The notes: a model not told the origin generated them from the letters alone. Shown: positions 17,219 to 48,674, counted from the first letter of the stretch. The stretch: 64,000 nt of DNA from an uncultured Rhodanobacteraceae bacterium (GCA_937928755.1 CALEZI010000050.1:2361-66360), one strand, 5' to 3'. Made by a program: numbers and translations.

Positions 17219-19453
17219 TCACGGCGACATGGTCGCCGTCAGCGTGACGATTCCGGTACGCGCCTGGGCGAGGTTGGCGAGCGGCGTGGTCGAGCCGGAG
17301 GGATCGCTGCCCCAATAGATGTACGACCCGGTGTAGTTGCTGCCGTTACGGTAGGCACGCACATTGCTGTTGCTGAACAGCCGGTAGTAGCCGATCGAGG
17401 TGTTGCCGACGAACGGTCCGACCGTGCAGTTGCACAGGTTTTGCGCGGTCAGGCCGACATTGACGCCCATCAGCAGGGTGGCGGGCGTCAGGTTGTCGAT
17501 CACCGGCACGAAGTAGCTACTGGATCCGACCACGTTGTCGACGGTGTAGCCCTCGATGGCGCCCTGGGTGAAGGTGGCCGGGTCAAAGTCGCCGCCCATG
17601 GGGTCGCCGATGGCAACCGAAGTCCCGGATATGGTCTGCCGCACCAGGTCCCAACTGATGATCACGGTGGGGCTGCCGGTGTAGGGGAACTGGGTAACGA
17701 CACCGCCCGCCGCGGTTCCGAGCAGTACCCCATTGGCGCGCACGGTGACCGGATAGATCAAATAGTTGGTGATCCGCACGGTCGCGCTGATGGTGCTCTG
17801 CGCGCTACCGCTGAGCGCGACGGTGTAGTTGCCCGAACTTGTGCCGTTGTAACTGGCCACGCGCAGATACCAGGTACCCGCGGACAGCGTGCGTTGCAGG
17901 CGGAAATTGAGGTTGCCGGCGCCATCGTCGTCCTCGGCCACGAAGCTGCAGTTGCTGTCGTAGAGTGTGCCCAGGGAGTCGAAGGAGCTGCTCGCGGACG
18001 CCGTGATGGTCGTCGTGCTGGCCAGCGTGAAACGGAAGAAGTCGACGTCGGTGCTCGGCGTCAGGCTGCCGCCGAAGGTCGTGCCGACGCTGACGCCGGT
18101 CGCCGTCGCGCAACTGTTGCCGTGGTCGTCGCCGGTGGCGACCCCACCGAGTGCAATCTGGTAGCTGCCGCCCGAAGCTGCGTTGAAGCTGGCCACGCGC
18201 AGATACCAGGTACCCGCCGGCAGCGTGCGCTGCAGGCGGAAGTCGAGGTTGCCGGCGCCGTCGTCGTCTTGCGCGATCTGCATGCAGTTGGCGTCGTACA
18301 ACGTGCCGAGCGAGTCGAACACACTGCTCGCCTGCGCAGTCACCACGGTACTGCCGGACAAGGTGAAGCGGAAGAAATCGACATCGCTGGTCGGCGCGAG
18401 GAATCCACTCAAGGTCGAATTCAGCGTGACGGGTGTGGCGCTGGAGCAACTGTTGCCATGGTCGTCGCCGCTTGGGCCGGCGACCGGATTGGCGTAGACC
18501 ACGGAACCGCCGGCATTGGCGACGACAATGCGCAGGTCGCCGGCACCGGCCGGACCGCGCGTCGGCTTGCCTTCGGTGCGCATCTGCACGGTGTGCGCAT
18601 CGGCAAGGCAGAACCCGGCGAAGCCACTGGTCGCGCTGGCCACCGGGTCATGGTAACCGCCGACGACCACGCCGCCCTGGAAGCCCCCGCCGGGACGATC
18701 CACGTAATTCGACAGCAGGCTCATGCCGAAGATGCCGTCGGCGCCGGGCAGCGGCTCGAGCGGCGCCACCGTGGCCACGTAAAATCCGGGCGACACCGTG
18801 GCCGAGGTGACATACGGAGAATTCTGGCCCACCGTGACCACCTGCGAAACGATCATCTGTTGCGTCGGCAGGCGGCGCTCCAGCGTCACCTGTAGGCGGA
18901 TGTTCGGATTGCCCGGCATGGCGCGAAAACCGGTCAACTGGACATCGACGCGTTGGTTCTCGTTGGCCGGATTGGCGATGGTGAATGCGGCGTAACCGGG
19001 TGCCGAGGCGTCCATCTGGCCGCCGAAGTTCAGCCCGCCAGCGAGCACGCGGCTGCCCGGCGCCAGCAACAGCAACTCGGTGCCGTAGCTGCCCGGCTGG
19101 ATGCCGGTTTCCGGCCCGTCGCCAATGGTCAGCACGTAGAATCCCGGGCACGCCAACCCTGGCGTCACGCCGAGCGCGACGCTGCCGCCGGGTTCGTCGA
19201 GCTTGAGTCCCTTGCCGCCCTTGATGCCTTTGTCCGGATGCATCGGCAAACCGGGCAGGAACCGGATGGCTTTGGACGGATGATCCTCGCGGGCAGCCGT
19301 CGGCTGCGGCATTCCGGCGAGCAGTTTCATGGCGCCGTCGACCTGCGCCTGCGCCCGCGCTTCGTCAGCGCGGGCGGCGGCCGTGGGCAGCAGCGACAAG
19401 GCCGCCGCCAGCGCAGCGGCGGCGACCCAATGGGTTCGTGTGGACGTTTGCAT
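17219..19453 (-). CDS. secreted multidomain protein P1: signal peptide, shared Cys-Cys module (copy 1, N-proximal), two PPC-like domains, unknown C-terminal region
   Basis: 744 aa. Signal peptide MQTSTRTHWVAAAALAAALSLLPTAAARA. Residues ~100-325 are CPGFYV...LAGGLNFGG...GYAAF...FYVATVAP...GGFQGGVVVGGYH...GFAGFCL...DLRI. Two repeats of GDDHGNSC..DVDFFRF...DDDGAGNL.FRLQRTL.AGTWYLRV follow. Confidence 0.8.
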   Translation of the reverse strand: MQTSTRTHWVAAAALAAALSLLPTAAARADEARAQAQVDGAMKLLAGMPQPTAAREDHPSKAIRFLPGLPMHPDKGIKGGKGLKLDEPGGSVALGVTPGLACPGFYVLTIGDGPETGIQPGSYGTELLLLAPGSRVLAGGLNFGGQMDASAPGYAAFTIANPANENQRVDVQLTGFRAMPGNPNIRLQVTLERRLPTQQMIVSQVVTVGQNSPYVTSATVSPGFYVATVAPLEPLPGADGIFGMSLLSNYVDRPGGGFQGGVVVGGYHDPVASATSGFAGFCLADAHTVQMRTEGKPTRGPAGAGDLRIVVANAGGSVVYANPVAGPSGDDHGNSCSSATPVTLNSTLSGFLAPTSDVDFFRFTLSGSTVVTAQASSVFDSLGTLYDANCMQIAQDDDGAGNLDFRLQRTLPAGTWYLRVASFNAASGGSYQIALGGVATGDDHGNSCATATGVSVGTTFGGSLTPSTDVDFFRFTLASTTTITASASSSFDSLGTLYDSNCSFVAEDDDGAGNLNFRLQRTLSAGTWYLRVASYNGTSSGNYTVALSGSAQSTISATVRITNYLIYPVTVRANGVLLGTAAGGVVTQFPYTGSPTVIISWDLVRQTISGTSVAIGDPMGGDFDPATFTQGAIEGYTVDNVVGSSSYFVPVIDNLTPATLLMGVNVGLTAQNLCNCTVGPFVGNTSIGYYRLFSNSNVRAYRNGSNYTGSYIYWGSDPSGSTTPLANLAQARTGIVTLTATMSP
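18479..19156 (-). other. shared Cys-Cys module, copy 1 (in P1)
   Basis: P1 residues ~100-325. Aligns by eye with the copies at 29039-29761, 31474-32187, 36374-37075 and 39497-40168. Confidence 0.7.
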
Positions 19454-23149: not shown

Positions 23150-24537
23150 GCCGTCAGCGTTTTCATCGGGCTGCGCTTGGCATCCTGCTGATGCTGGTGG
23201 CGAGTGTCGCCGTCGCCGATTACAAGAAGAATTATCTTGATGGTGTCGATGCCGCCAAGAAGGGCCAGTGGGTCGAGGTACGCCGTTTGATGACCGCGGC
23301 GATCGCGGAACGACCCGATGCCGGCCGGGTGAGGTTCTACGGCAGCATTCCGGAACCCTATGTGCCGCACTATTACCTTGGACTGGCCAACGCCAACCTG
23401 GGCGACTGTCCGTCGGCGCTCAGCGCGTTCAAGAACCCCGGCAGCAGTGCGCTGGTCGCCGGTTTGGCGAAAGAAGCGGCCGAGCTGGGCAGGGCGCGGG
23501 CACGCTGCGAGCAGCAGATGCTGGCGCAACAGAGCAAGCCGCCGGAGCCGCCCACGGCGACCACCGAGCCGGTTGCCGTGACCACGCCGCCGACGACCGA
23601 ACCAAAGCCGGTGATCGTGGCGCAGAACCCGCCAGCGAGCGACACCCGACCGCCGGCAACCACGCCAACGGCGCCGACCGCGGTCGCACTGCCCGACGCG
23701 CGTATCGCCCCGGCCAGGGCGGCCATGAGCAAGGTCGATGCCCAGATCGCCAGCATCGAACGCCAGTTGAAGGCAGCGCCACTGGCAGGCACCGGCGACG
23801 CCCGCGGCCTGACGCGCGACCTCGACCTGCTTCGCCGCCAGCGGCAACAGTTGCTGACCAGCCTGGAACGCGCACGCAGCGGTGGCGATGGCAAGCTGCT
23901 GGGCAGCGTCGAAACCGATGCCGCCAAGCTCGGCAGCGACCTCGCTATGCTCGGCGAACGCGTGCAGTCGGCCGGCGTTGGCCTGGCCCAGGCCTTGGAA
24001 GCGACGGCGCTGGAGCGGGCCCGCCGGCAGTCAGCTGATTTGGTGACGAAGATCGATCAGCGCCTCACCGAAGCACGCGCGGCGGGTGTCGAAGGAAGCG
24101 CGGCCGTGGCGGCGCTCGGGCCGGCGCGCACACAGTTGCAGCAGTTGGTTGCCGGCAGCGATCGCGCCGCCATCGAGCGCGCGCTGGCCGCGGCGACCAA
24201 GGCGACCGCGCAACTGGAGGCGGCCATTGCCGCTGCGCCCAAGCCGGCGCCGGAGCCGTTGCGCGCACTAGTCGGCGCCTACCTGACCGCGAAGTACGCC
24301 GAGGTTGCGCGCTGGGACAATGTTGCGGAACTGCCCGACGCCCGCGCCCGTGCCCAGGCGCACCTGCTGCGCGGAGCCGCGCGCTGGCACCTGTACGTGC
24401 GCGACGGCGAGCAGGACGGCAGCCTGCGCGCCGCGATCGACAGCGATCTGCGCGAAGCCAAGCGTCTCGACCGCGCGCTCAAGCCGAATACGCAGGTCTT
24501 TTCGCCGAAGCTGGTGGAGCGTTTCGCGGCCTTGTGA
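23146..24537 (+). CDS. hypothetical secreted protein (TPR-like N-domain, Pro/Thr linker, coiled coil), translationally coupled to the kinase
   Basis: 463 aa. The ATG at 23146 overlaps the kinase TGA (ATGA). Signal peptide MSRQRFHRAALGILLMLVASVAVA. Contains the linker PPEPPTATTEPVAVTTPPTTEPKP. I recognise no family. Confidence 0.65.
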   Translation: MSRQRFHRAALGILLMLVASVAVADYKKNYLDGVDAAKKGQWVEVRRLMTAAIAERPDAGRVRFYGSIPEPYVPHYYLGLANANLGDCPSALSAFKNPGSSALVAGLAKEAAELGRARARCEQQMLAQQSKPPEPPTATTEPVAVTTPPTTEPKPVIVAQNPPASDTRPPATTPTAPTAVALPDARIAPARAAMSKVDAQIASIERQLKAAPLAGTGDARGLTRDLDLLRRQRQQLLTSLERARSGGDGKLLGSVETDAAKLGSDLAMLGERVQSAGVGLAQALEATALERARRQSADLVTKIDQRLTEARAAGVEGSAAVAALGPARTQLQQLVAGSDRAAIERALAAATKATAQLEAAIAAAPKPAPEPLRALVGAYLTAKYAEVARWDNVAELPDARARAQAHLLRGAARWHLYVRDGEQDGSLRAAIDSDLREAKRLDRALKPNTQVFSPKLVERFAAL

Positions 24538-24600: not shown

Positions 24601-25872
24601 TCAGAAGCGCATCACGCCGGACACCGAATAGGTATCGACGATATCGGAGAAATCCGCCGCCAGATCGAGCTGGAAGCTGGTAAATGCCCAGCCCAGGCCG
24701 AGGCTGAAATGGGTCTCGTCGTCGCCCTTGGTGAACAGGACCGCATCGACGCAGGCCTCGAAATCGATGTTGCAATCGGTTGGGGTCGGACCGCCATAAG
24801 CGAGGCGGTGGTCCGGATCGAACCAGACGCCGGCGCGCAAGAACATCGGTGTCGCCATGTCGAGGAACGCGTATTCGGCGCCGAGGCGCACCTCGGTGCC
24901 ATCGTCGACGTCGAGATTGGCGACCACCCCCGGGAAGATCGAATCGACGTCGTCGGTCAGCTTGCTGTACTCGACGAAGTTCACGTCCAGCGAGAACAGC
25001 CATGCATCGGTCGGGCGGAACGCCAGACCGGCGCTGAACACATTCGGCACCGCGAATCCGGTCTTGACATCGGCGATCAGCGGATCGCCGTCGGCGTCCA
25101 GGTTCGAGCTGGTGTAGCTGAAGTCGCCGCCGTCGCGGTAAGCCAGCCCGAAGTTCCACTGCGGCGTGATCTGCCACAACGCGCCCAGCGAAAACACGAT
25201 GTCGTCGTCGCTGCCGCGCTGGCGCTGCGAACTGCCCGGATCGATTCCGCCGCGTGTCGTGCGCGAGGCCAGGGCGAAATCCGAATAGGCGATGGTCGCG
25301 CCGATCGAGAAGGTGTCCGAAACCGAAAAGCCCACCGCCGCACCGAAATTCTCGACCTCGTAGCTGATCGAGCCCAGCGCCGGGTCGATCCGTCCGGCCG
25401 GACCGAGGTCGTCGAGGTATTCGATCGCGTCGGCGTTCACGCTGCCCTCGAAATCGCCCACGCGGTGGTAGAACAGCGAAAAGGTCGCGCGCTCGGTCGG
25501 GTACACGACGGATGCGAACGACACCTGCGAAACCGTGTCCGAGGTCGAGGCCTCGCCGACGCCACTGGCGTTGAAGGGATCGAGGGGAAACTCGCCGCCG
25601 GACGCATAGCTGCTGTCGAAGTCCGTGCTGCGCGCTTCCAGGCCGAACTCCGCCTTGCGCAGAATGGTCAGGCCGGCCGGGTTGGCATACGCGGCCGTCG
25701 CGTCGTCAGCCAGTCCGGTGAAGGCGCCGCCCAGTCCCAGCGAGCGTGCGCCCGGATTGGAGAAGTTGAACTGCAGGCCGCGGTTCAACTCGTCGTTGGT
25801 GATTGCCAGAGCGGCCGCAGGCGCCAGGGCCAGCGCCACCAACACTGCATGAGCGATAGCTTTGTGACGCAT
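24601..25872 (-). CDS. outer-membrane beta-barrel transport protein, OMPP1/FadL/TodX-like
   Basis: 423 aa. Signal peptide MRHKAIAHAVLVALALAPAAALA. The N-terminal GARSLGLGGAFTGLADDATAAYANPAGL resembles the FadL-family hatch motif. Alternating amphipathic strands follow, and the protein ends in a terminal Phe (VSGVMRF). Confidence 0.75.
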   Translation of the reverse strand: MRHKAIAHAVLVALALAPAAALAITNDELNRGLQFNFSNPGARSLGLGGAFTGLADDATAAYANPAGLTILRKAEFGLEARSTDFDSSYASGGEFPLDPFNASGVGEASTSDTVSQVSFASVVYPTERATFSLFYHRVGDFEGSVNADAIEYLDDLGPAGRIDPALGSISYEVENFGAAVGFSVSDTFSIGATIAYSDFALASRTTRGGIDPGSSQRQRGSDDDIVFSLGALWQITPQWNFGLAYRDGGDFSYTSSNLDADGDPLIADVKTGFAVPNVFSAGLAFRPTDAWLFSLDVNFVEYSKLTDDVDSIFPGVVANLDVDDGTEVRLGAEYAFLDMATPMFLRAGVWFDPDHRLAYGGPTPTDCNIDFEACVDAVLFTKGDDETHFSLGLGWAFTSFQLDLAADFSDIVDTYSVSGVMRF

Positions 25873-26332
25873 GACACCCCCGGTCGCGTTAAGGCTTTGG
25901 AAAGCAGGCGCAAACGTTAGCCCCTCCGTCCAACCAGGTCAATGTTGGTCACGATGCACCTTGCGCTGCCCAGCGATTCGCCCGGCGCAACCGCACGGCC
26001 CTGCCGGCACATCACCAGGTGACCAACGACGGACCTGCGGGCAGCAACTCGGACTACATGGGGATCGACACGCTGAGGCCGGGCCCGGCGCAGTGATCAA
26101 GTTGCACCGGCGCAGCGCGCTCGCGCGGCGGCGCGCCGGTTGCGCGAACGCCCGCATGCCGCAGTTAACATTCAAACGCGATTGAGACGTAAGATGGAGT
26201 GCCGCTTGGCCTCTGTGCCGGCGGTCGCGCGTTGTGCAGATCAAGGCTGCCTTTTCGCCCACGCGTGGTTGACGGCCCAGGGGTCATCGACGGACGCGAA
26301 TGGCGTGCTGTCCGAATCACGGAGGTGCTGCA

Positions 26333-29300
26333 ATGAACAGGTTTTCTTCGGGTGCGCTGCTGTCGATGCTGTTGCTGGCCGGCGGGGCACTTGCGGCTGG
26401 CAACGCACCTCCCGGTTCGACGCGCGCGCCAGCGGCGCCCGCTGCGACCGGCGTGTCGTTGACCAATGTGTCCAGTTTCGAGGACCCGTGCGGCGGCGTG
26501 CGCTACAACGCCACGTTGACCTTCACCGGCACCACCAACGATGGCGGCGGCAACGACACCGTCTGGCTGGTCATCTTCGATGATTCGGTCGAGAAGTTTG
26601 CGCAGACGTTCACCGCGCCGGTGAACCAGCAACGCTCGCACCAGATTGCCGTCGAGTATCCGGGCAGTGTCGGTACCGTGGTCCCCGGTATCGGCATCTA
26701 TGTTCGCGAAACCCGCACTTCCGGCGATCTGCTGGTATTCGACCCGTTCCTGCCGACGCGTCTTTCCACCTGCACCATCGGCGGCACGCCGCCGACGCTG
26801 GGGTTCAATCCGACCATCAACACGATCATTGCCTACGGCAGCAATGGCAGCGCCAGCCCGATCGGGGTCATCAATGCGGGTGGCGGCTCCGGCAGCGGCC
26901 CGGCGGCCACCACGACGCTGAGCAATTGCGTGATCAATTCGGGCGGCGCCGCATTTCCCACGAGTTCATTCAACCCGAATGTCAGCGCGGTTGGCAGCGG
27001 CAACCCGTCGCCGGCCAGTTTCAGCCTGCCGAATTGCGTTCCGCAGGCGACCGTGGTCTCCACCAGCATGCAATGCGCGGAAACCCGCGGCAGCGGCGGC
27101 ACGGTGACGCAGCGCTTCTGGACGCTTTCCTGTCCTGCGGGTGCTGCGCCCGTGGCACCCCCACGGCTGGGCAGTCCGACGGTTGCGGCAGTGACGCCGA
27201 GCGGCGCGCTGCCCAACGGCAACAGTCAGGCGCCATCGATATCGCGCACCGGCAATCGCGTGGCCTACACCTCGGATGCCAGCAACATCGTTCCGGGCGA
27301 TCCCAATAACAGCAACGACATCTTCCTGCGCGATCGGGTGACGGCTACCACCACTCGCGTCAGCGCATTGGCCGCCCCGTTGAGCGCGGACCCCAACGAA
27401 GTTTTCGACGATCCGGCGATCTCGGCCGATGGCAATGTCGTGGCCTTCACTGGCGTTACCACCGGTCAGGTGTTTGCTGCCGCCGGAGGCGTCGGTCGCA
27501 AGATCAGCGCGAACGCAGCCGGTGTGCTCGGCAACGCCGACTCCGCCAACGCGTTCCCGACCAATGATGGCTCGCAGGTGTTCTTCCAGTCGCGCGCGAC
27601 CAACCTGCTCGCCGGCAGCGACGGCAATGGCAACACCGCCGACATCTTCGTCAAGAATCTGGGTAATGAGTCGGTCACGCTGGTCACGGTCGGGCCCAAC
27701 GGTGAGCCGGCGGACGGTCCCAGCGCCGCGCCGTCGGCGTCCGCCGACGGCCAGACCGTCGTGTTCCATTCGCTGGCGACCAACATCGTGCCCGGTGGCG
27801 CGCCGACGCCGACTGCCTTCAGCCAGAACTTCGACAGCGTTACCGCGCCGACATTGCCGTCGGGTTGGAGCGCGCAGAACACGGTGTCCGGCAACGGCTT
27901 GCGCTGGGTGACCAGTGCCGGTGCCAGTCCGCCGGCGGCGAGCTTGCCCAACGCCGTCAGCGTCGACGAGGAAGGCGTGGTGTCGAACAAGCTGCTCGAC
28001 AGCCCGTTGTTGACGCTGACAGCGCAGCCGGCGACGCTCACGTTCCGCCGTTTCCATGACCTCGAGGTGGATGCCGGGGGCGCCTATGACGGCCTCGTGC
28101 TGGAACTGTCGGTCAACGGCGGTGGCTTCATTGATGCGGTCGGCGCCGGCGGGAGCTTCACCCAGGGCGGCTACACCGGTGTGATCTCCAGCAACTTCTC
28201 CAGTCCGATCGCCGGTCGCAGTGCCTGGACCGGTGCTACCGGCGGCAGTTATGCCACCACGGTGTACTCGCTGCCGGGCAACATCGCCGCCGGCAGCAGC
28301 GTGCGCTTCCGTTGGCGCCTGGCGACCGACGTGTCGGTCGCCGGCAATGGCGCGCGCATCGACAGCATCACTTCGACCAACCTGACGCAGCCGTCGACGG
28401 TGGTCGACAAGTTGCCGCCTGGCGTCAAGGCCGGCACCATCCAGCAAGCGACGATGATGCGCGAATCGGGCCGCAGTCGCTTCTACTTGAGCCGCAACCG
28501 AACCACCGGCGAGCTCGGCAATGGCGACAGCACCAATGTCAGAGTGACGCCGGACGGCCGTTGGGCGGTGTTCGAATCCGACGCCACCAACCTGATCTCT
28601 GGCGACACCAACGGTTTCAAGGACATCTTCCGCGTCGAGGTCGTCAACAACCAGGTGGTCGGCATGGACAAGGTGACGGTGACCAAGGCCGGCGTACAGG
28701 CCAACGGTCCCAGCTTCCTGCCGCAGATCAGCGACGATGGACTGCTGATCACCTTCCAGACCGAAGCCACCAACCTGGTTCCGCCGGACACCAACGGGCA
28801 ACCGGACGTGATGGTGAAGTCGATGATCACCGGCGACGTACTGCGCATGTCGCAGACCACGGACGGGCAGGAGCCCAACGGACTTACCGTGCTGCCGGTG
28901 ATCTCCGGCGACGGCAGTACGCTCGCTTTCTGCACGCTCGCCACCAATGTCGCGCCGGGGGACAACAACAATGCGGCCGACATGCTCACCTCCAGCATCC
29001 AGAGCGGACTGCCGCGCGACGAGCCCGGCCTGGTGCGCTTCACCTTGCCGACGCCGAATCCGCCGAATGCCAACTGCCCGGCCGGATTCTTCAGCGCGGT
29101 GGTCGACGATGGCCCGGGCGCCGGCTTGACCTCGGGCGCTTTCGGGGTGGAGGTGCTGCTCGACGATCCGGGTACCCGGGTGCTTGCCGGTGGCCTCAAC
29201 TTCGGCGGCCTGATCGATGTCAGCCAGGTCGGTTTCGCGGCCTTCAACATCGCCAACCCGGCGAACGAATCGCAACGCCTGAATCTGTCGCTGAGCGGCA

Positions 29301-29764
29301 GCCCGTCGAGCAGTTCGAGCGCCAGCTACCCGGTGCGCGTGCGCATCGCCCGGCGCACGGCGACCACCACCGATGTCGTTTTCGACAGTACGCAGACGAT
29401 CTCGCTGACCAGCCCGTTCACCACCACCATCGATCTGCCGCCGGCATTCTATGAGGCCACCGTGGCGCCCACTTCCGGGACCACCGGCGGTGCTCCAGAA
29501 GGTCAGTTCTTCTTCTCGCTGACGACCAGCTTCATCAATCGTCCCGGCGGCGGTTTCCAGGGTGGCGCAGTGGTCGGCGGTTATCACGCCCCGCACCCCT
29601 TTGGTGGGGTCAGCGGTTTTGCGGCTTTCTGCCTGGCGACGCCGCATACCACCAGTGTGCGCGTGCTGTCGCAACCGAGTTACGGGCCGGCGGGTGCCAA
29701 AGACCTGCGCTTGCGCATGCAGGATGCGCAACAGCGCGATGTGGTGGTGGTGCCGTCGAACTGA
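26333..29764 (+). CDS. secreted multidomain protein P2: PD40/TolB-like beta-propeller repeats, jelly-roll (MAM / choice-of-anchor-J-like) insert, C-terminal shared Cys-Cys module (copy 2)
   Basis: ORF 26300..29764. The ATG at 26333 is preceded by GGAGG and gives MNRFSSGALLSMLLLAGGALA. Repeated ...(V/A)(A/F)(F/Y)xSxAxNL(V/I)xGDxNxxxD(I/V)F(V/L)(R/K) blades are present. FSQNFDSVTAPTLPSGWSAQN begins the jelly-roll domain. The last 241 aa are the shared module. Confidence 0.8.
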   Translation: MNRFSSGALLSMLLLAGGALAAGNAPPGSTRAPAAPAATGVSLTNVSSFEDPCGGVRYNATLTFTGTTNDGGGNDTVWLVIFDDSVEKFAQTFTAPVNQQRSHQIAVEYPGSVGTVVPGIGIYVRETRTSGDLLVFDPFLPTRLSTCTIGGTPPTLGFNPTINTIIAYGSNGSASPIGVINAGGGSGSGPAATTTLSNCVINSGGAAFPTSSFNPNVSAVGSGNPSPASFSLPNCVPQATVVSTSMQCAETRGSGGTVTQRFWTLSCPAGAAPVAPPRLGSPTVAAVTPSGALPNGNSQAPSISRTGNRVAYTSDASNIVPGDPNNSNDIFLRDRVTATTTRVSALAAPLSADPNEVFDDPAISADGNVVAFTGVTTGQVFAAAGGVGRKISANAAGVLGNADSANAFPTNDGSQVFFQSRATNLLAGSDGNGNTADIFVKNLGNESVTLVTVGPNGEPADGPSAAPSASADGQTVVFHSLATNIVPGGAPTPTAFSQNFDSVTAPTLPSGWSAQNTVSGNGLRWVTSAGASPPAASLPNAVSVDEEGVVSNKLLDSPLLTLTAQPATLTFRRFHDLEVDAGGAYDGLVLELSVNGGGFIDAVGAGGSFTQGGYTGVISSNFSSPIAGRSAWTGATGGSYATTVYSLPGNIAAGSSVRFRWRLATDVSVAGNGARIDSITSTNLTQPSTVVDKLPPGVKAGTIQQATMMRESGRSRFYLSRNRTTGELGNGDSTNVRVTPDGRWAVFESDATNLISGDTNGFKDIFRVEVVNNQVVGMDKVTVTKAGVQANGPSFLPQISDDGLLITFQTEATNLVPPDTNGQPDVMVKSMITGDVLRMSQTTDGQEPNGLTVLPVISGDGSTLAFCTLATNVAPGDNNNAADMLTSSIQSGLPRDEPGLVRFTLPTPNPPNANCPAGFFSAVVDDGPGAGLTSGAFGVEVLLDDPGTRVLAGGLNFGGLIDVSQVGFAAFNIANPANESQRLNLSLSGSPSSSSSASYPVRVRIARRTATTTDVVFDSTQTISLTSPFTTTIDLPPAFYEATVAPTSGTTGGAPEGQFFFSLTTSFINRPGGGFQGGAVVGGYHAPHPFGGVSGFAAFCLATPHTTSVRVLSQPSYGPAGAKDLRLRMQDAQQRDVVVVPSN
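29039..29761 (+). other. shared Cys-Cys module, copy 2 (C-terminus of P2)
   Basis: FTLPTPNPPNANCPAGFF...LAGGLNFGGLIDVSQVGFAAFNIANPANE...PPAFYEATVAP...GGFQGGAVVGGYH...GFAAFCLATPHT...DLRLRM. Confidence 0.75.
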
Positions 29765-29783
29765 CGGGTGCCAGCCGCGCCCG

Positions 29784-29847
29784 TTGGGGGCGGGCTTGTG
29801 CCGCGAGCCTCGAAACACCCGAGCTCGCGGGACAGGCCCGCTTTCAC
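29784..29847. repeat. degenerate REP doublet (TGTGGGAGCGGGCTTGTCCCGCGA family)
   Basis: ttgggggcgggcttgtgccgcgag ... ctcgcgggacaggcccgctttcac, just after the P2 stop. Confidence 0.6.
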
Positions 29848-30009
29848 TCGGGGCGCTTGTGTGCCGGCAGCAGCGACCTTGAGTCGCGCGCTCCGACCAT
29901 GATGGTCGCCAACGATCCCGATCGCGCTGGGTTCGCCAGAACACAGCGCCGCCACCATCGACAGGTGTACAGTCACCCTTGTTGCGTCAATCACGTTGCG
30001 GAGTAGCCC

Positions 30010-33000
30010 ATGGGTATGTCGCGTCCGTTTTTCCCGTTTTTCCGCGGCATGGTGCCCGGAAGTGTCGTGGCGCTGCTGCTGTTGGCGTGCGCCATGCCGG
30101 CGCTTGCTGCGTCTCCCGGCATCGATGGCGACCTCGGGTCGTTGGCCCCGGCTTACCGCACTTACCTCGTGTCGCCGCCGGACGTCAGCAAATTCATCGC
30201 CGAGGACAGCAAGACCAACCAGGCGCCCTATCGCTATGGCGTCGAAGTGGCAACGCCCGGCCTCTATCTGCAGGACGGCAAGCCCAGCCACGGTGTGATT
30301 GAAACCCTGCCCGACGGGCGTCGCCTGTGGCGCGTCGAGGTGGTTTCGCCGGGCGCGCTCTCGCTGGAGTTCGCGTTCGCCAAGCTCGGCTTGCCGGGTG
30401 GCGCCGAATTGTTCATCCACTCCCGCGACCGAGCGCTCTCGCGCGGCCCGATTCGCGCCGCCGACGTGCAGCCGGATGGCCGCTATTTCTCGGCCTTCGT
30501 GCCGGGCGACACCGCCATCCTGGAAGTTGCGATGGCATCCGCCGCATTCGCCGACGCCGAAATCCGCGTCGCCAATGTGGGCCACGCTTACCGCGGCATC
30601 TTCGAAGCCTTACGCGGCAACAAGTCAGGAAGCTGCAATGTCGATACCATCTGCCCGCTCGGCGACCAGTGGCGCGACCAGATCGACGCTGTCGGCCACT
30701 ACACGCTGCGTACCGGCGGCGGTACCGCGGTGTGCACCGGCAGTTTGATCGCGAATACCCGAAACGACACCACGCCGTACTTTCTGACCGCCAACCACTG
30801 CCTCAGCACCGAAGCCGTCGCCGACACCGTGGTGGTCTACTGGAATTACCAGTCGAGTACCTGTCGCGCGCCGGGCTCCGCCTCGAGCGGCACGCCGCTG
30901 CCATCGTCGATCGCCACGCATACCCAATCGGGTACCGCGCTGGTGGCCACCAGTGCCGCCAGCGACTTCGCGCTGTTGCGTCTCGACAGCGCCGTGCCGA
31001 CCGCAGCCAATCCGTTCTGGACCGGCTGGGATGTGCGTGGCGACGCGCCGCCCACCGCGGTCACCATCCATCACCCGGCGGGCGACGAAAAGCGCATTTC
31101 CGACACCATCATCCCGTTGACCACCTCGGCCTACCTGGGTGCGGAAGGTAGCGGCACCACACACTGGCGCGTCGCCGACTGGAACAACGGCACTACCGAG
31201 GGCGGCTCTTCCGGTTCCGGCCTGTGGAGCCCGAGCAAGCAACTGATCGGTCAACTGCACGGTGGTTTCGCGGCCTGCGGCAACAATGAAGCCGATTGGT
31301 ACGGGAAGTTGTCGGTGTCCTGGAACGGCGGCGGTACGCCGACCACGCGCCTGCGCGACTGGCTCGACCCGATCAACAGCGGCGTCAGCACACTGAACGG
31401 CAATCGCGCATCCGGCGGCAGTGGTGGCATGGTTCTCGGTGGAACCGCTGATGAGCCGAGTGCGAGCCGTGTCGCATTGCCGACGCCGAATCCGCCGAAC
31501 GCCAGTTGCCCGGCCGGCTTCTTCATCGCCACCGTTGCCGATGGCCCGCAGGCAGGCCTGACGCCGGGCGCTTTTGGCATGGAACTGCTGCTGGACGCGC
31601 CGGGAACGCGAGTCCTCGCGGGTGGGCTCAACTTCGGTGGCCTGATCGACGTCAGCCAGGTCGGTTTCGCGGCGTTCAACATCGCCAACAATGCGAACGT
31701 GCAGCAGACCTTGAACCTGAGCCTGACCGGTAGCCCGTCGAACAACAGCGCGGGCAGCATTCCGGTGCGCATCCGCATCGCAAGGCGCACGGCGACCACC
31801 ACCGACGTGGTTTTCGAAAGCACGCAGACGATCTCGCTGGCGACTCCCTACGTGACCAGCATCAACCTGCCGCCGGCGTTCTACGAGGCTACCGTGGCGC
31901 CGATTTCGGGCACACCCGGTGGTGCGCCGGAGGGTCAGTTCTTCTTCTCGCTGACGACCAACTTCGTCAACAGCACCGGTGGCGGCTTCGAAGGCGGCGC
32001 GGTGGTTGGCGGCTACCATGCGGAGCATCCCTTCGGCGGTGTGTCCGGCTTCGCCGCGTTCTGCCTGGCGACGCCGCATACCGTGAGCATGCGCGTGCTG
32101 TCGGCGCCCAGCTATGGCGCTACCGGCGCGCGCGACCTGCGGCTGCAGATTCTCGATGCGCAGCAGGCGGTGGTGGTCACGCATCCGACCGGAGGCGGCG
32201 GCAACGTCGCACCGACGGCCAACTTCAGTTTCACCACCAATGGCCTGACCGCGAATTTCGTCGACGCCTCCAGCGACAGCGATGGCAGCATCGCTTCGCG
32301 CAGTTGGAATTTCGGCGACGGCGGCACCTCGACGGCGACCAATCCAACGCGCACCTACGCTGCCGCCGGAACCTACACGGTGACGCTGACAGTGACCGAC
32401 AACGGCGGCGCAAGCAGTACCACCTCGCGCTCGGTGACGCTGACCTCGGGTGGTGGCGGCGCGGTGCAACTGGCAAACAATGTGGCCGTCAACGGATCCA
32501 CCAACTCGACGACGCCGAACAGCAGTTTTGCCGAGTACACCGTGGTGATTCCGGCCGGCGCCAGCAACCTCAGCATCGCCACCACCAATGCCACCGGCGA
32601 TCTCGACCTGCACGTGCGCTTCGGCCAGGCGCCGACCCTGACCACCTTCGACTGCCGGCCGTTCCTCGACAGCGGCAACGAAACCTGCACCTTCCCGACG
32701 CCGGGCGCCGGCACCTATTTCGTGCGCGTCTATGGATTCGCCACCGGGCCGCAGACCTTCACCATCCGCGCATCATGGACGGTCGCCGCCGGCAATGCCT
32801 TGCAGAATGGCGTGGCGGTGAACGGTTCGACCAATTCGAGCACGCCGAACGGCAGCTTTGCCGAGTACACCGTGGTGCTGCCGGCGGGCGCCAGCAATCT
32901 CAACATAAGCACCAGCAACGCAACCGGGGACCTCGATCTCTACGTGCGCTTCGGCCAGGCGCCGACACTCACCACTTTCGACTGTCGTCCCTTCCTCGAC

Positions 33001-34185: not shown

Positions 34186-34270
34186 GCGCATTCCTGAAGT
34201 CCAGGGGCCCGGCGCCTTGGCGCCGTGGTTCGCCGCATCGGCAATTGCCCTGGATGACCTGGAGTTCCCC

Positions 34271-37078
34271 ATGCCTGCATCGATTCACCGATTGCGCAGC
34301 TTGCCTGCCGTGTTGATGTTCGCGGCGTCGCCATTGCTCGCGCAGACCGCCGATACCCGCTTTGGCGCCTGGAGCGAGGCGGGTGCAGCGAATCAGCCCG
34401 GGCGCGTGCTCGATGGCCTGCAACTGGATAATGGCAACTATCTGCAACTGAGCGCTGACGGTGTGGTCTGGCTCACCGGGCGCGAGGACGGACCGATTCC
34501 GCTCAACGATGCAGCGGCCCTGCGACCGCTCGGAACGACCTCCGCAATGCTGTACTTCGGCGGCCCGCTCCCTCGGGTGGTCCTGAGCGCCGATCGACCC
34601 GCGGGCATCCACCTCAGCGCCAACGATGGATTCACCTGGTACAGCGCTACCGGGCTCGATGCCAGCGGCGTCGATCTTGGCCTTGAGGCCCGGCCTGCCA
34701 GTGGTCAGGTGTTCCACTTGAGACAACTGCCGCAATCCGCCGGGCAGCCGGCGCAGCTGGCACTGCATGCGTCGGCCGATCGCGGTGAGTCGTTCAGCCG
34801 CATAGCCTTGTTGCCGTTTTACTCGGCGCTCGACTCGCAGCCGGCCGGCAACGCCTTCTACGTGCTGCGCGAAAACCTGCTGGTCGAGACCAATGTACTC
34901 GGGAACTTCCTGTCGGACGTCGGTGCGGTGCCGATCGACTTCCCGCCCGAAGCGCTGCGCGGCATCGGCGTCTGTGCCGGCGGGGTCGGCGCCGTGGATC
35001 ATGTCTGGGCCTTCTACAAGGTCGGCGACGGCGACAACGCCGAGGTGCGGGTGTACCGGTCGCTGGATGGCGGACGCCAATGGCAGGCGCGCACGTCGAT
35101 CCCGGGCAAGTTCCCGACGCGCATCCCGGTGCAGTGCTCGCGCAGCGATCCGTCGCTGGCGTTCGTCGCTGGCGAAGGGGCATGGCGGACCGCAGACGGC
35201 GGCAGCAGTTGGCAGCCGATTTCCGATGTGGCCGCTCACGCAACCGCGCCGCACAGCAATCTGCCGGCCGCCGTCCATCGTATCCGCAGTTCGCGTTTCG
35301 ATGAACGGTCAGAGCGATTGCTGTTCGCCACGGACGCGGGCCTGTACGAATCCGCTGACGCCGGGCGCACGGTGAGCCGCCTGCCGCAGACCTTGCGCAA
35401 CAGCCAATACCCGCAGCTCGCGAGCCGATCGCCGCTGGGAGATCTGGTTTTTCTCGCCGCCGGCGAGGGCGGCTACCAGCGCATGAACATCATCATGACG
35501 ACCCCGGCATTCAGCACCCGACGCGCCAGCGGCAGCTATCGGCGACTGGCGCTTGCCGATGACGGCAGCCGCGTATGGCTGGCCGGCGCTGACGGAGTTC
35601 TGCTGGATGCCGACCCGGCGAGCGCGACCGCGTCCCGCCTGTACCACTGGACCCTGCCCGATCGCGTGCGCGCCAGCAGCGACTTGTTGCTGGTGGCGAT
35701 GCCGGGCGATCGCGACCGCGCCCTGCTCGGCGGCGTGAATATCGACGGCGCACCGGGACTGCTGGAACTCGGTTTCGACGGCACCACGATCCACTGGCGC
35801 GCACTCGACCACCGATTCGCGACCGACGCCGCCAGCGTCGCTCTGACCGCGTCGCCGCATCAACAAGGTCGCTTGTACGTGGCCGATGCGTTGGGTCGGC
35901 TGCATCGCAGCGATGACGCGGGCCGCAGTTTCAGCCTGCTCGCGGGCGGCGCAGTCGTCGGCCAGGGGGTGCGCGAGATCCTGGTCGACCCGACCCGGCC
36001 CGATCGCCTGCTGCTGGGCGGCGACGCCGGCGCGCTGGCCAGCGTGCGCGAATCTCTCGACGGCGGCAGCAGCTTTCACGACTACGCCGACGGCCTGATT
36101 CCGACCACGGTCAACGCGCTGGCGCTGTCGGGCGATGGCCGCCATCTGTTCGCAGCCAGCGCCGATGGCCCGTGGTATCACGAACCCGCGACGGCGCGCT
36201 GGCGCCATATCGGCGCTGGCCAGGCGCCCGACCAGAATTACCTCGATGTCGAATATGTAGACCGCATCCAGCGCGCGCGCTTCGCCACTGCAGGTCGCGG
36301 CATGTGGCAGGTGCAGCTGCTGGCGCCGGCCCCGGCCGGCGCCACGCTCGACGAACCGCAAGCCGCGGGTTTGCCGTTGCCGCTGCCGGCGGCGCCGCAA
36401 TTTGGTTGTCCGGCCGGGTTCTATGTGGCGGAAGTCGATGATGGTCCGGGTGCCGGGGATCATCCGGGTAGCTTCGGAATGGAGCTGTTGCTGGATGCGC
36501 CCGGTACCCGCGAACTGGCGGGGGGCCTGAACTTTGGCGGGCTGATCGACGCCGGGCAACCCGGTTTCGCCGGCTTCAGCCTGCGCACCTCGCAAACCGT
36601 GCGCCTGGAGCTGCGCGCTGCCGACGCTCAAGGCGATCCCATCGCCCTGCAGGTGCGCGTGAGCCAGCGCATCGGAACGCACAGCAACGTGGTCCACGAA
36701 AGCACGCCGATGCTGTCCCTGGAGCAGCCGTGGCAGACCGAGCTGCTCTTGACCCCGGGGTTCTACGAAGCCCGGGTGGCGGCGCCCTGCTGCAGCGCGG
36801 ACACCGCGGGCGGCGCGCCCGAGGCGCAGTTCTATTTTTCGATGACGACGCCGGGCGGCCCTGGTTTCGAGGGCGGCGCGGTGGTCGGCGGTCATCATGC
36901 CAGCGTGGCCGGCCTGATCTCCGGCTTCGCGTCGTTCTGCCTGGCCCAGCCCCATTCGATCACTCTGCGCACGCTGAGCGCGCCCAGCTACGGTCCGGTT
37001 GGTGCCCGCGACCTCAGGCTGCGCTTGCGCGATGGCGAAGGACGCACGCTGCTGTTGTTGCCGGCCACCGCGCCCTGA
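34271..37078 (+). CDS. secreted multidomain protein P4: BNR/Asp-box (sialidase/Ycf48-like) beta-propeller(s) plus C-terminal shared Cys-Cys module (copy 4)
   Basis: ORF 34151..37078, with start at MPASIHRLRSLPAVLMFAASPLLA (ATG 34271). Asp-box motifs are SADRGESF, SLDGGRQW, TADGGSSW, SADAGRTV, SDDAGRSF and SLDGGSSF. The last 234 aa are the shared module. Confidence 0.8.
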   Translation: MPASIHRLRSLPAVLMFAASPLLAQTADTRFGAWSEAGAANQPGRVLDGLQLDNGNYLQLSADGVVWLTGREDGPIPLNDAAALRPLGTTSAMLYFGGPLPRVVLSADRPAGIHLSANDGFTWYSATGLDASGVDLGLEARPASGQVFHLRQLPQSAGQPAQLALHASADRGESFSRIALLPFYSALDSQPAGNAFYVLRENLLVETNVLGNFLSDVGAVPIDFPPEALRGIGVCAGGVGAVDHVWAFYKVGDGDNAEVRVYRSLDGGRQWQARTSIPGKFPTRIPVQCSRSDPSLAFVAGEGAWRTADGGSSWQPISDVAAHATAPHSNLPAAVHRIRSSRFDERSERLLFATDAGLYESADAGRTVSRLPQTLRNSQYPQLASRSPLGDLVFLAAGEGGYQRMNIIMTTPAFSTRRASGSYRRLALADDGSRVWLAGADGVLLDADPASATASRLYHWTLPDRVRASSDLLLVAMPGDRDRALLGGVNIDGAPGLLELGFDGTTIHWRALDHRFATDAASVALTASPHQQGRLYVADALGRLHRSDDAGRSFSLLAGGAVVGQGVREILVDPTRPDRLLLGGDAGALASVRESLDGGSSFHDYADGLIPTTVNALALSGDGRHLFAASADGPWYHEPATARWRHIGAGQAPDQNYLDVEYVDRIQRARFATAGRGMWQVQLLAPAPAGATLDEPQAAGLPLPLPAAPQFGCPAGFYVAEVDDGPGAGDHPGSFGMELLLDAPGTRELAGGLNFGGLIDAGQPGFAGFSLRTSQTVRLELRAADAQGDPIALQVRVSQRIGTHSNVVHESTPMLSLEQPWQTELLLTPGFYEARVAAPCCSADTAGGAPEAQFYFSMTTPGGPGFEGGAVVGGHHASVAGLISGFASFCLAQPHSITLRTLSAPSYGPVGARDLRLRLRDGEGRTLLLLPATAP
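36374..37075 (+). other. shared Cys-Cys module, copy 4 (C-terminus of P4)
   Basis: PLPLPAAPQFGCPAGFYVAEVDDGPGAG...LAGGLNFGGLIDAGQPGFAGF...PGFYEARVAAP...PGFEGGAVVGGHH...GFASFCLAQPHS...DLRLRL. Confidence 0.7.
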
Positions 37079-37183: not shown

Positions 37184-40171
37184 ATGAATCCCCGCAATCC
37201 GCGCGCAGCGCATCGCAGTATCGACGACCTTTGCGCCCGCGCCAGCGTGCTGCTCGCATTGCTCGTGGCGGGTGCCGCCGGGGCCTCCCCGGTGGTCCCG
37301 TTGCGCGATACCACGCTGGGCACCCAGGGCGACTTCGGTCGCGGCTGCGCCTTCGTCGGCAACCAGTTGCAGTGCTGGGGCGGCAACTCCAGCGGTTCGC
37401 TCGACATCGGCGCCACCGCATTGGAGTCGCTGACGACGTGGATGAAGCGACCGGATACGGCGTCAGGCGACTTTGACCGCCCGACCAGTCTGGTTGCGAT
37501 CGACCGCACCTGCCTGACCGATGCTGCCGGCGTCTGGTGCTGGGGGCGCAACGAGCGCGGCCAACTCGGGCTGGGCGATCGCGTCAATCGACCCACGCCG
37601 GAGCACTTGCCGGGGCTGCCGGGTGATGTCGTCGAGGTCGTGTTCGGGCGGTACCACGCCTGTGCCCGCACGCAGGCGAGCGGACTGTGGTGCTGGGGCG
37701 GCAACAACTACGGCGAGACCGGCCAGGCGCCGGGCGCTGCGGTGCTCGACCCGGTCACCAATGTGGTGATGAGCCCACCGCAAACGCGCGCCATGGCGGT
37801 GCCCGGCTTGCCGGCAACGCCGATTGCCGTGGCGCTCGGCGAGTACTTCAGTTGCGCGCTGGTCGGTACCGGGGTCTGGTGCTGGGGCAACAATGAACAG
37901 GGCCAGCTGGGCGATGGCAGCCAGATCGCGCGCCCGCTGCCGGCGCCGGTGACCGGCCTGCCGGCGACCATCCAGCGTATCGCCCTCGGCGAACAGCACG
38001 CCTGCGCCATCGATGGCATCGGCGATGTCTGGTGCTGGGGCAACAACCAGTCGGCACAGGTCGGCGTCGCGGCCAGCACGACGCGGCTGATCGAACCCTT
38101 GCCGCTGCGCGTCAATGCTATGGGCGGTCCGGCAACCCGGCTGTACCTGAGTTTCTCGCAGAGCTGCGCGCTGGTGGGTAGCGACAAGAAGTGCTGGGGT
38201 GTATCGATCGACGGAACCAATGGCCCGAACCCTCAAGTGATCGCCAAGCCTGCGGGTGCCCCCGCCGACTGGCTGTCCGACTGCTACTCGCTCGCGGGGG
38301 AATTGCAATGTCCGGTGGTCTCGACGCGCCACCCGCACACACCGCTCGACGCCCGCCCGGTGCCCGGATTGTCCGGTCGTCCGGCGCAGCTGGCGCTCAG
38401 CCGCGACTTTGCCTGCGCGCGGATGCCCGATCAGTCGGTGTGGTGCTGGGGCACCAATACCCGTGGCCAACTGGGGCAGGGCGATGTGAATGCGCGTGCG
38501 CAGGCCGTTCGTGTGCCGCTGCCGCCGACCCAACAGATCGCCGTCGGCACCGCGCACGCGTGCGCTGCCACCAGCGACGGCCTGTGGTGCTGGGGCAGCA
38601 ATGCCTACGCCGCACTCGGCGACGGTACTTCTGTCGATCGCCCAGCTCCGGTCCGCTCGCAATTCGCCGGCACGCTGATTGCCGCCGGCGAGGGCCACAC
38701 CTGCGCCTACGCCTCGGGCGGCGAGTTGCGCTGCTGGGGCAACAATTCGGTCGGTCAGGTCAGTGGACAGCACTCGGGGACGCTTCCGGGTGGCGCCTCG
38801 CCGCTGGGCGCGGCGGCAATCCGCGAACTGAGCGCCGGCCTGTCGCACACCTGCGCGGTATTGCAGTTGTCGGCTGGCGCCACGGAAACGCGCTGCTGGG
38901 GTCAGTTGCCGACGACCGCCGATGAGGCCACCGGCGGCATCACCGACTACAGTCCGCGCCTGATCACTCCCGGCAATCCGATACCGGCCGACTCCATCAT
39001 CACGCTGCGTTCGTCCGGGTTCACCACCTGCGCCGGCGACCGTTGTTTCGGTTTGAGCTACCTGCCGGCCGATCGTGGCGTGTTCCGCGTCGACCAGTTG
39101 CTTGTGCCGCCGATGCCGTCGCCGCGCGCGTTCGCCCTCGGCAGCCGCCTCGCGTGTCTGCAGGGCGCTGGAACCGATGTGCGCTGTTCGGCGCTGACCA
39201 ACCGCGCCTGCCAGTTCGAGTGGCTTGCACGCTTGCTGTTCACGCCAGGCCAGATGATCGGCTGCCAGTTCTCCGAATCGCTGGTCTCGCCTGCGGAGCG
39301 CGAGTGGATCCGCGTGATCGGCCTGCCATCGCCGCCGCTGTTGCTGCAAGGCGGCGAGCAGTACGCCTGCGCAGCGCTCGCCCAGGGCACTTATTGCTGG
39401 GGTCCGCGGGTGCCGCTTTACTTCAACGCGAGCGGAGCCGACTACGGTCCGGTCTACCGCGCGGGCGCCATCGAACCGGCACCGACGGTGGCGGTGCCAC
39501 TCGATCCGGCGCGCGCTTGCCCGGCGTATCTGGTGTCCTCGGTCAGTCTGCTCGACCCCTCCGCGGCGGACGCAGCAGGCGCCTGGGGCCAGGAGATCCT
39601 GCTCGGCAGCGGCAGGCGCTTCCTCAATGGCGGGCTCAATTTCGGCGGTTTCGGCAGCGCCGCGGGATCCGGCGTGCCGGGTTATGCGGCGTTTTCGATC
39701 AACAACCCGGCCAACAGCGAGCAGGCGGTGACACTCGATCTGCGCGGTGACGGCGGCGAGTTCACGCTCACGATCGAAAGCACGCTGCCGCCGTCGACCG
39801 CACGCATCGAAGTGCTGCGCGAACGCGTGACCCTGGTCGATGCGCCGCTGCGACGCAGTGTCAATCTGCGCAACGGTTTTCACATCGTGGTGCTGCAACC
39901 GGTCTCGGGGACACGCCTGTTCCTTGCCGGCATCGGCACCACCACCCTCGATGGGGGTCCTGCCGCATTTCAGGGCGGCGCCGTGGTCGGCGGCCATCTT
40001 GGCGGCGAGCAAACCGGCTTCAGCGGCATCTGCACCGACGACGCCACCAGCGTGTCGATCCGCACCGAGGCGCGCAGCAGCCGTGGCCTGATCGGTGCAA
40101 GCGACCTGCGCCTGCGCACGATCGAAGGCCAGACCGGCGCCATGCTTTACGACAGCGCGCCCGCCCAGTGA
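37184..40171 (+). CDS. secreted multidomain protein P5: RCC1-repeat beta-propeller(s) plus C-terminal shared Cys-Cys module (copy 5, most divergent)
   Basis: ORF 37118..40171. The ATG at 37184 follows GGAG and gives MNPRNPRAAHRSIDDLCARASVLLALLVAGAAGA. There are at least 10 RCC1-like blades, for example VWCWGRNERGQLGLGD, LWCWGGNNYGETG, VWCWGNNEQGQLGDG, VWCWGTNTRGQLGQGD and LRCWGNNSVGQV. Confidence 0.8.
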   Translation: MNPRNPRAAHRSIDDLCARASVLLALLVAGAAGASPVVPLRDTTLGTQGDFGRGCAFVGNQLQCWGGNSSGSLDIGATALESLTTWMKRPDTASGDFDRPTSLVAIDRTCLTDAAGVWCWGRNERGQLGLGDRVNRPTPEHLPGLPGDVVEVVFGRYHACARTQASGLWCWGGNNYGETGQAPGAAVLDPVTNVVMSPPQTRAMAVPGLPATPIAVALGEYFSCALVGTGVWCWGNNEQGQLGDGSQIARPLPAPVTGLPATIQRIALGEQHACAIDGIGDVWCWGNNQSAQVGVAASTTRLIEPLPLRVNAMGGPATRLYLSFSQSCALVGSDKKCWGVSIDGTNGPNPQVIAKPAGAPADWLSDCYSLAGELQCPVVSTRHPHTPLDARPVPGLSGRPAQLALSRDFACARMPDQSVWCWGTNTRGQLGQGDVNARAQAVRVPLPPTQQIAVGTAHACAATSDGLWCWGSNAYAALGDGTSVDRPAPVRSQFAGTLIAAGEGHTCAYASGGELRCWGNNSVGQVSGQHSGTLPGGASPLGAAAIRELSAGLSHTCAVLQLSAGATETRCWGQLPTTADEATGGITDYSPRLITPGNPIPADSIITLRSSGFTTCAGDRCFGLSYLPADRGVFRVDQLLVPPMPSPRAFALGSRLACLQGAGTDVRCSALTNRACQFEWLARLLFTPGQMIGCQFSESLVSPAEREWIRVIGLPSPPLLLQGGEQYACAALAQGTYCWGPRVPLYFNASGADYGPVYRAGAIEPAPTVAVPLDPARACPAYLVSSVSLLDPSAADAAGAWGQEILLGSGRRFLNGGLNFGGFGSAAGSGVPGYAAFSINNPANSEQAVTLDLRGDGGEFTLTIESTLPPSTARIEVLRERVTLVDAPLRRSVNLRNGFHIVVLQPVSGTRLFLAGIGTTTLDGGPAAFQGGAVVGGHLGGEQTGFSGICTDDATSVSIRTEARSSRGLIGASDLRLRTIEGQTGAMLYDSAPAQ
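39497..40168 (+). other. shared Cys-Cys module, copy 5 (C-terminus of P5)
   Basis: PLDPARACPAYL...LNGGLNFGGFGSAAGSGVPGYAAFSINNPANSE...AFQGGAVVGGHLGGEQTGFSGICTDD...SDLRLRT. Confidence 0.6.
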
Positions 40172-48637: not shown

Positions 48638-48674
48638 CTTGCATACCAATTTTTGTTGGGTTCGGGCCGGGTTT

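Follow-up and report, generated by a model that had tools for sequence, protein, structure and literature searches.

A two-lobed domain with a conserved cysteine pair in exported proteins of an uncultured Rhodanobacteraceae bacterium

A stretch of 64,000 nucleotides from an uncultured Rhodanobacteraceae bacterium (the window) encodes five Sec-exported proteins, P1 to P5, each of which carries one copy of a module of ~245 amino acids (aa), all inside a 23-kb block. The module is a new domain family: its copies are homologous to one another, its boundary is defined, its fold is predicted with confidence, and the curated domain libraries do not contain it. It is a solid new family and not a new kind of biology, being a familiar jelly-roll accessory part. 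What appears to be new is a well-bounded domain family of unusual composite build, which brings together two duplicated lobes, an arm in front of them and a single Cys pair.

Five homologous copies and their boundaries

An earlier note on this DNA had proposed that five signal-peptide proteins share a common module. Translation, full-length alignment, BLASTP and a six-frame search all uphold this proposal. The copies of P1 to P5 are alignable end to end with 43 invariant columns, both Cys among them, and a hidden Markov model (HMM) of the family, run against the six frames of the window, found exactly five copies at the places listed in Table 1. BLASTP with compositional adjustment gave E-values of 2e-50 for P1 against P4, 2e-23 for P1 against P5 and 1e-21 for P2 against P5. 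The closest pair is that of P2 and P3 (78% aa and 75% nucleotide identity). The ratio of nonsynonymous to synonymous divergence (dN/dS) of this pair is ~0.2 at a dS of ~0.85, which argues for purifying selection on the protein and against a recent DNA repeat. The earlier note had itself allowed that the common motifs might be a compositional coincidence, which would be one of Gly/Ala-rich proteins with a high GC content. The GC content of the window (62–70%) and the abundance of Gly in the motifs lend themselves to that reading, yet the pairwise E-values (1e-21 to 2e-50) hold despite compositional adjustment, 184 database clusters match at E ≤ 1e-10, the predicted fold is confident and dN/dS is ~0.2. 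We regard coincidence as refuted, with a probability next to nil.

An alignment of 132 complete family members revealed a conserved xEP motif 13–16 residues upstream of the first Cys (Cys1). The Pro of this motif is 96% conserved in the 132 modules (DEP 81, GEP 15), and the motif is present in all five copies of the window, as DEP in P1 to P4 and as IEP in P5. The true start of the domain is at xEP, ~7 codons upstream of where the earlier note had placed it; the translations and the places of its segments stand, and its starts are replaced by those of Table 1. AlphaFold2 (AF2) modeling of the P2 module agrees with this start. The 20 residues that precede DEP are disordered in the model, whereas the chain is ordered from DEP on, with a strand directly after it. 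The N-terminal arm (model residues 21–45) has a predicted local distance difference test score (pLDDT) of 93–96, with the strand at residues 26–31. The Pro-rich LPTPNPPNA is also ordered (pLDDT above 90) and is therefore part of the fold; its PTPNPPNA portion had been taken for a linker in the earlier note, a view that we abandon. At the other end, 79 of the 108 C-terminal family copies stop 0–1 residues past the last strand, and none of the 108 is followed by a hydrophobic tail or any other tail of a sorting tag. The internal copy of P3 ends at this boundary as well, ahead of the PKD domain. On the model, the module is an autonomous extracytoplasmic domain that spans xEP to the final beta-strand, ~245 aa.

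Table 1. Host genes, module copies and the parts of the P2 module (positions in the window)
Feature	Position	Strand	Description
P1 gene	17219..19453	-	744 aa; signal peptide; two PPC-like domains
P1 module	18479..19198	-	N-proximal, aa 86-325; followed by two PPC-like domains and an unannotated 182-aa tail
P2 gene	26333..29764	+	1143 aa as called in public assemblies; longest open reading frame from 26300; signal peptide, PD40 repeats
P2 module	29018..29761	+	C-terminal; aa 907-1154 of open reading frame 26300-29764; from DEP to the last codon
P2 N-terminal arm	29018..29074	+	DEP, short strand GLVRFT, ordered LPTPNPPNA; ends just before Cys1
P2 N-lobe unit	29075..29440	+	8 predicted strands; opens with Cys1 (29075-29077); GGLNFGG, NxANExQ
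P2 C-lobe unit	29441..29761	+	7 predicted strands and a short helix; GGAVVGGYH, GFAAFC with Cys2 (29630-29632), DLRL
P3 gene	30010..33117	+	1035 aa; prepro-lysyl endopeptidase, then module, PKD, two PPC
P3 module	31450..32187	+	Internal, between the lysyl-endopeptidase domain and PKD plus two PPC
P4 gene	34271..37078	+	Called as 935 aa; longest open reading frame from 34151
P4 module	36350..37075	+	C-terminal, behind a BNR/Sortilin-like propeller
P5 gene	37184..40171	+	Probable start M23 of open reading frame 37118-40171; RCC1 repeats, then module
P5 module	39470..40168	+	C-terminal, behind RCC1 repeats; most divergent copy; IEP in place of DEP

Internal duplication, cysteine pair and fold

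The first hint of an internal repeat was a second high-scoring segment pair in BLASTP, in which the C-terminal half of the module aligned to its N-terminal half. Comparison of profiles of the two halves by hhalign gave a probability of 96% (E 3e-9) with 20 sequences and of 98.3% (E 1.3e-14, score 80 over 89 columns) with 132 sequences; the scores of 20 column-shuffled controls were at most 16.2, with E-values of at least 0.029. The unit common to both halves reads P-GF(Y/H)-x-a-x-V ... G-x-F-x-a-x-a ... (F/L)-x-GG-a-x-a-GG ... G(F/Y)AAF-x-a, where a is aliphatic, and ends in three further strands. As judged from these profiles, the module is a tandem duplication of a ~110-aa unit, a point that is absent from the earlier note. 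In a search of 5.8 billion proteins, a profile of the unit hit nothing but fragments of the module family and no single-unit relatives, so the two-lobe form appears to be obligatory.

The AF2 models present the same picture. The model from an alignment of 20 sequences (A2) had a pLDDT of 88.3 and a predicted template modeling score (pTM) of 0.81. The N-terminally extended alignment of 62 sequences (A4) gave a pLDDT of 93.2 and a pTM of 0.88, and its five models ranged from 92.8 to 93.2 in pLDDT. In these models the module is composed of two homologous lobes, both jelly-roll-like beta-sandwiches that originated by tandem duplication, with the ordered arm in front of them.

The invariance of the two Cys, which the earlier note had read from the five window copies, extends to the family at large. 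Both are found in 132 of 132 modules, at a median spacing of 181 residues, and 129 modules have exactly these two Cys; 13 apparent absences were alignment shifts of 1–2 residues. The two Cys are at non-equivalent positions of the repeat. Cys1 is located where the arm meets the N-lobe, Cys2 is in the GFAAFC strand of the C-lobe, and the N-lobe has Asn where the C-lobe has Cys2. A universal Cys pair in proteins with export signals fits a disulfide.

The claim of the earlier note that the module matches no named domain withstood every library that we searched. Pfam-A (2025) and NCBIfam (June 2026) gave no match over the module in scans of the five full proteins, nor over the isolated or extended modules at E ≤ 10, and no family of either library covered the module in 55 full-length family members. 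No Pfam match to PKD, CARDB, Calx-beta or other named Ig-like domains was seen over the module. The hits to PilZ, MnhB and Endotoxin_C in these scans were noise, all with E-values above 0.005. Profiles of PDB sequences gave no match to the module, and for the single unit there was nothing but a match to coronavirus spike (E above 0.1). Nor does the module resemble the PEP-CTERM, GlyGly-CTERM or MYXO-CTERM tags, as xEP leads into an ordered beta domain of ~245 aa and no hydrophobic tail is present. Where the source databases (NCBI, JGI) annotate the proteins, they are named "hypothetical protein" or "PPC domain-containing protein", the latter on account of other domains. A literature search on the motif and on secreted domains of Wenzhouxiangella found nothing on this domain.

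The structural matches are generic as well. Foldseek searches of PDB and BFVD with the model gave query-normalized TM-scores (TMq) of at most 0.33. The best compact match to one lobe was the C-terminal domain of Clostridium perfringens enterotoxin (8u5b_B), with a target-normalized TM-score (TMt) of 0.54 and a root-mean-square deviation (rmsd) of 4.3 Å over 114 columns. Other matches at the level of one lobe were a porphyran carbohydrate-binding module (CBM; TMt 0.44) and MAM, TNF and lectin jelly rolls. The likeness of the lobe to the enterotoxin domain, to CBMs and to MAM would be expected if the module were a divergent member of a named accessory family (PPC, CBM, MAM or similar) that is too weak for detection by hmmscan, and the frequent co-occurrence of the module with PPC is in keeping with this possibility. 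A local likeness of DLRL to the DLDLY of PPC (hhalign E 0.007, 22 columns) hinted at the same link. We rejected the PPC link. When the N-terminal half, the C-terminal half and the whole module were compared by hhalign with alignments of the PPC domains in these proteins, the probabilities were 0.1–5.4%. A search by hmmscan at E ≤ 10 had no PPC match on the five modules and likewise none on 44 diverse single units, for which the scan at E ≤ 1 gave nothing but noise. The empty or noisy PDB profile searches, the 55 members without a family over the module and the failure to find single-unit relatives count against a divergent member of any named family, as does the combination of two-lobe unit, arm and Cys pair, which has no structural counterpart in PDB or BFVD at the TMq stated above. 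We consider such membership, or a later placing of each lobe in a named family by better fold tools, unlikely.

Family range and possible roles

Searched against 1.84 billion representative proteins, the family profile gathered 274 clusters (50% identity) at E ≤ 1e-3, 184 at E ≤ 1e-10 and 128 at E ≤ 1e-30. Among contigs with one genome per species, 36 loci were found, all in metagenome-assembled genomes (MAGs) and mostly in Lysobacterales or Wenzhouxiangellaceae; as the scan used two exact peptide patterns, this taxonomic range is a minimum. The remaining labels were Gammaproteobacteria without further rank (three, one of these with six loci), one Xanthomonas sp., one Burkholderiales and one unclassified Pseudomonadota. 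Module genes are multicopy within genomes and often clustered, as exemplified by three copies in 10 kb in the loci L018 and L019.

The partner domains are diverse. They include PPC, S8, S1/trypsin-like, M35, P-domain, PA, RCC1, PD40 and BNR/Sortilin, and further FG-GAP, Kelch, DUF5122, Flg_new_2, FGE-sulfatase, Lcl_C and beta-helix. Family members P0035 and P0092 are near-standalone forms, with a signal peptide, ~70 aa and the module. A hydrophobic N-terminal h-region was present in 103 of 130 Met-starting matches, one of them lipobox-like; most of the matches that lack it are apparently fragments in which an internal start was called by mistake. Of 148 complete copies, 101 (68%) are at the extreme C terminus, 30 are N-proximal and 17 are internal. 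The earlier note had called the module mobile and not a terminal sorting tag. The unrelated heads and the varied positions are as it described, but the statement is too strong in view of this C-terminal preponderance.

Our preferred reading, for which we see even chances, is that the module may serve as a non-catalytic, disulfide-stapled handle for binding or retention. It draws on the architecture of the proteins, on the nearest folds and on the biology of the host lineages. After Sec export, the Cys pair would form a disulfide; this would fasten the arm to the C-lobe like a clasp and fix the two lobes as one rigid unit. In the manner of a lectin, a CBM or an adhesion domain, the module would tether exoproteins as varied as proteases, beta-propellers and FGE-type enzymes to one shared target, be it the surface of the producer itself, or a polymer or the surface of prey. 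The most plausible face for binding would be in the N-lobe, around the Asn of GGLNFGG and the Gln of NxANExQ. The invariant residues of the module are almost all Gly, Phe, Pro and Cys, and this Asn and this Gln are the only polar ones. No constellation of a catalytic type is seen among them, which argues against an enzyme and favors a scaffold whose N-lobe may present a polar patch for binding. We also count in favor of a handle the autonomy that is indicated by the variable position and the near-standalone forms, and the fact that the nearest folds are binding modules. With the cultured Wenzhouxiangella strain AB-CW3, no release of protease activity into the medium was seen, and the authors of that study assumed the proteases to be anchored in the outer membrane by means that they did not identify (PMC7691419).

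Several observations weigh against the handle. The C-terminal bias, with most copies ending 0–1 residues past the last strand, suits a role in sorting or as a pro-domain equally well. In precursors of proteases, the module is located in segments that are normally removed at maturation (the extension of the lysyl endopeptidase, the region before the S8 propeptide), which is awkward for a handle that should stay on the mature enzyme. The fold matches are too weak and generic for the assignment of a function. The disulfide and the clasp of the arm on the C-lobe are deduced from positions in the sequence, and strain AB-CW3 is brought in as a member of one of the host lineages.

The chief alternative is that the module is a secretion, sorting or pro-domain. 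Folded and disulfide-locked, it would be recognized in the periplasm, would serve translocation across the outer membrane (for example, by a type II system) or attachment to the surface, and would then be clipped at the xEP/Pro-rich boundary, with a functional likeness to the PPC pre-peptidase extensions or to the C-terminal domain of the type IX secretion system (T9SS). The 101 copies at the extreme C terminus and the 79 that end so close to the final strand are consistent with such a role, as are the many paralogues per genome with unrelated heads and the conservation of xEP at the boundary. The P3 copy is inside the C-terminal extension of a lysyl endopeptidase, and the C-terminal extension of Achromobacter protease I is removed; in P0049 and P0100, the module is N-terminal to the S8 propeptide or catalytic domain. 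Against this, 32% of the copies have an N-proximal or internal position, which a signal confined to the C terminus would not tolerate, and near-standalone forms exist. The xEP motif is within the ordered fold with a strand right behind it, so there is no exposed linker. No dedicated partner, be it a sortase, a shuttle or a protein of the outer membrane, recurs in the 10-kb flanks of the 36 loci. The module also shows no relation in sequence to PPC (hhalign at most 5%) or to any Pfam or NCBIfam sorting domain. We rate the sorting or pro-domain role as possible, though on the improbable side. A bolder proposal is that the module might be a new class of surface-retention/sorting domain for exoproteins of Lysobacterales and Wenzhouxiangellaceae, the missing means by which lytic proteases and adhesin-like propellers stay on the outer membrane or on prey after type II secretion, with arm and disulfide as the clasp and xEP as a site of controlled release. 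This we consider quite unlikely.

The module adds an unnamed, well-defined domain to the repertoire of accessory domains in bacterial exoproteins, and the family covers ~270 protein clusters that are at present "hypothetical" or annotated by their other domains only. Lysobacterales generally include proteolytic or predatory members, and the family is expanded in lineages of this kind, Wenzhouxiangella included. As the retention of proteases by strain AB-CW3 is unexplained (PMC7691419), the module is a concrete candidate for keeping exoproteases cell-bound. Should it bind a defined surface polymer, it would be a useful fusion handle; should it have neither a retention nor a binding role, it would be one more beta-sandwich domain of the DUF type.

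Host genes, neighborhood and comparison with known systems

An N-terminal hydrophobic, signal-like region is present in all five host proteins. The heads were assigned by PD40 repeats in P2 (E 4.8e-12), lysyl endopeptidase (Achromobacter protease I) in P3 (E 4.7e-71), a weak match of Sortilin/BNR type in P4, which is under the Pfam cutoff, and RCC1 repeats in P5 (E 3.7e-64). The PKD match of P3 is at aa 732-807, downstream of the module. For three of the genes, the longest open reading frame (ORF) begins ahead of the signal peptide, by the segments 26300-26332 (P2), 34151-34270 (P4) and 37118-37183 (P5). The host proteins also occur in metagenomes of bioreactor sludge; as the public gene calls there are of 1143 aa for P2 and 935 aa for P4, the true starts of these two are downstream of the longest-ORF starts. 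For P5, the position of the signal peptide and the homologue P0128 make 37184 the probable start.

Two further segments of the host proteins are of note. The C-terminal 182 aa of P1 (aa 563-744; 17222-17767, minus strand) have no Pfam or NCBIfam match; they share 43% identity (2e-48) with the C-terminal tail of P0085, a protein with an N-proximal module. By this homology, the tail is a second unannotated domain, C-terminal in position, that accompanies the module. In P2, aa 549-739 (27944-28516, plus strand) resemble a non-catalytic segment of myxosortase- and rhombosortase-dependent M36 metallopeptidases; the NCBIfam E-values of 8e-18 and 1e-16 are far under the family cutoffs, and the segment is probably another shared accessory domain.

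We searched for partner genes by all-against-all clustering of the ORFs from the 36 loci and the window. The large families of apparent neighbors were rejected as antisense shadow ORFs of the module genes. In the window such ORFs, which are not genes, cover 26966-29944, 30625-32613 and 37463-40300 on the minus strand and reach 992 aa. They cluster across 21 loci because they mirror a conserved sense frame in high-GC DNA. The real recurrent neighbors are a Ser/Thr kinase, a methyltransferase and a 2-oxoglutarate (2OG) oxygenase, in 2–4 loci each, the window included. These loci are all from MAGs of Lysobacterales type, so the recurrence is probably synteny.

The Ser/Thr protein kinase gene (20774-23149, plus strand) codes for 791 aa, of which aa 12-257 are the kinase domain and the rest is unannotated; its homologues adjoin module genes in L001, L003 and L007. 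It is overlapped by an ORF of 463 aa (23146-24537, plus strand) that has no Pfam match and recurs in L003. The methyltransferase-domain gene is between P3 and P4 (33247-34185, plus strand; 286 aa in public assemblies) and adjoins module genes in L001, L018 and L019, which may reflect synteny or a functional link. P1 is flanked by the 2OG-Fe(II) oxygenase gene (19557-20519, plus strand), which is also found near module genes in L004 and L015, and by a polysaccharide deacetylase gene (16225-17175, minus strand). Divergent from P2 and upstream of it is a gene for an outer-membrane beta-barrel of FadL/Toluene_X type (24601-25872, minus strand), which does not recur in the other loci. Downstream of P5 are ORFs without a Pfam match, at 40283-41422 (plus strand) or 40434-41603 (minus strand), which are alternatives on opposite strands, and at 44726-46465 (plus strand); a homologue of the ORF at 40.2–41.4 kb adjoins a module gene in L006. 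In the window as a whole (1-64000), ARAGORN detected neither tRNA nor tmRNA genes. The housekeeping flanks consist of LptF/LptG (13073-15303), PepA (11532-12998, minus strand), GlyS (46469-48649, minus strand) and a thiamine pyrophosphate (TPP) enzyme (42100-43857). With these flanks and no compositional break, the exoprotein block is in an ordinary chromosomal context.

Among known systems, the S and P domains of birnavirus VP2 and a region of phage lambda gpJ likewise consist of two consecutive jelly-roll-like sandwiches. They were the top Foldseek matches over both lobes (E ~3e-5, 240–320 aligned columns). The arrangement of the lobes differs, with an rmsd of 17–23 Å and a TMq of at most 0.30, and the likeness is one of generic fold only. 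A phage origin of the module was considered and rejected, as no relatives were found in viral contigs and the BFVD fold matches are generic. The claudin-binding domain of the C. perfringens enterotoxin and the beta-sandwiches of CBM type give the best compact fold matches to one lobe of the module and are non-catalytic binding modules. These matches cover one lobe, at an identity of 13–15% and a TMq below 0.3; there is no relation at the level of sequence, and the ligand residues are not comparable.

The C-terminal sorting domain of the T9SS is also a beta-sandwich that is borne by many secreted proteins with unrelated heads, mostly at the extreme C terminus and in many copies per genome. The module, in contrast, gives no Pfam or NCBIfam match to it, is ~2.5 times larger and is not C-terminal in 47 of 148 copies. 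Its hosts are Gammaproteobacteria, which are not known to have a T9SS, and no PorV- or PorU-like partner recurs nearby (36 loci, 10-kb flanks). PPC (PF04151), lastly, is a beta-sandwich accessory domain of Sec-exported proteases and other exoproteins, as is the module. It, too, is often found in extensions that are cut off at maturation, and it occurs in the very proteins that carry the module (P1, P3 and 8 of 55 family members). The Pfam model of PPC has 70 positions, whereas the module, at ~245 aa, is over three times longer and is distinguished by its obligate two-lobe tandem, its N-terminal arm and its conserved Cys pair.

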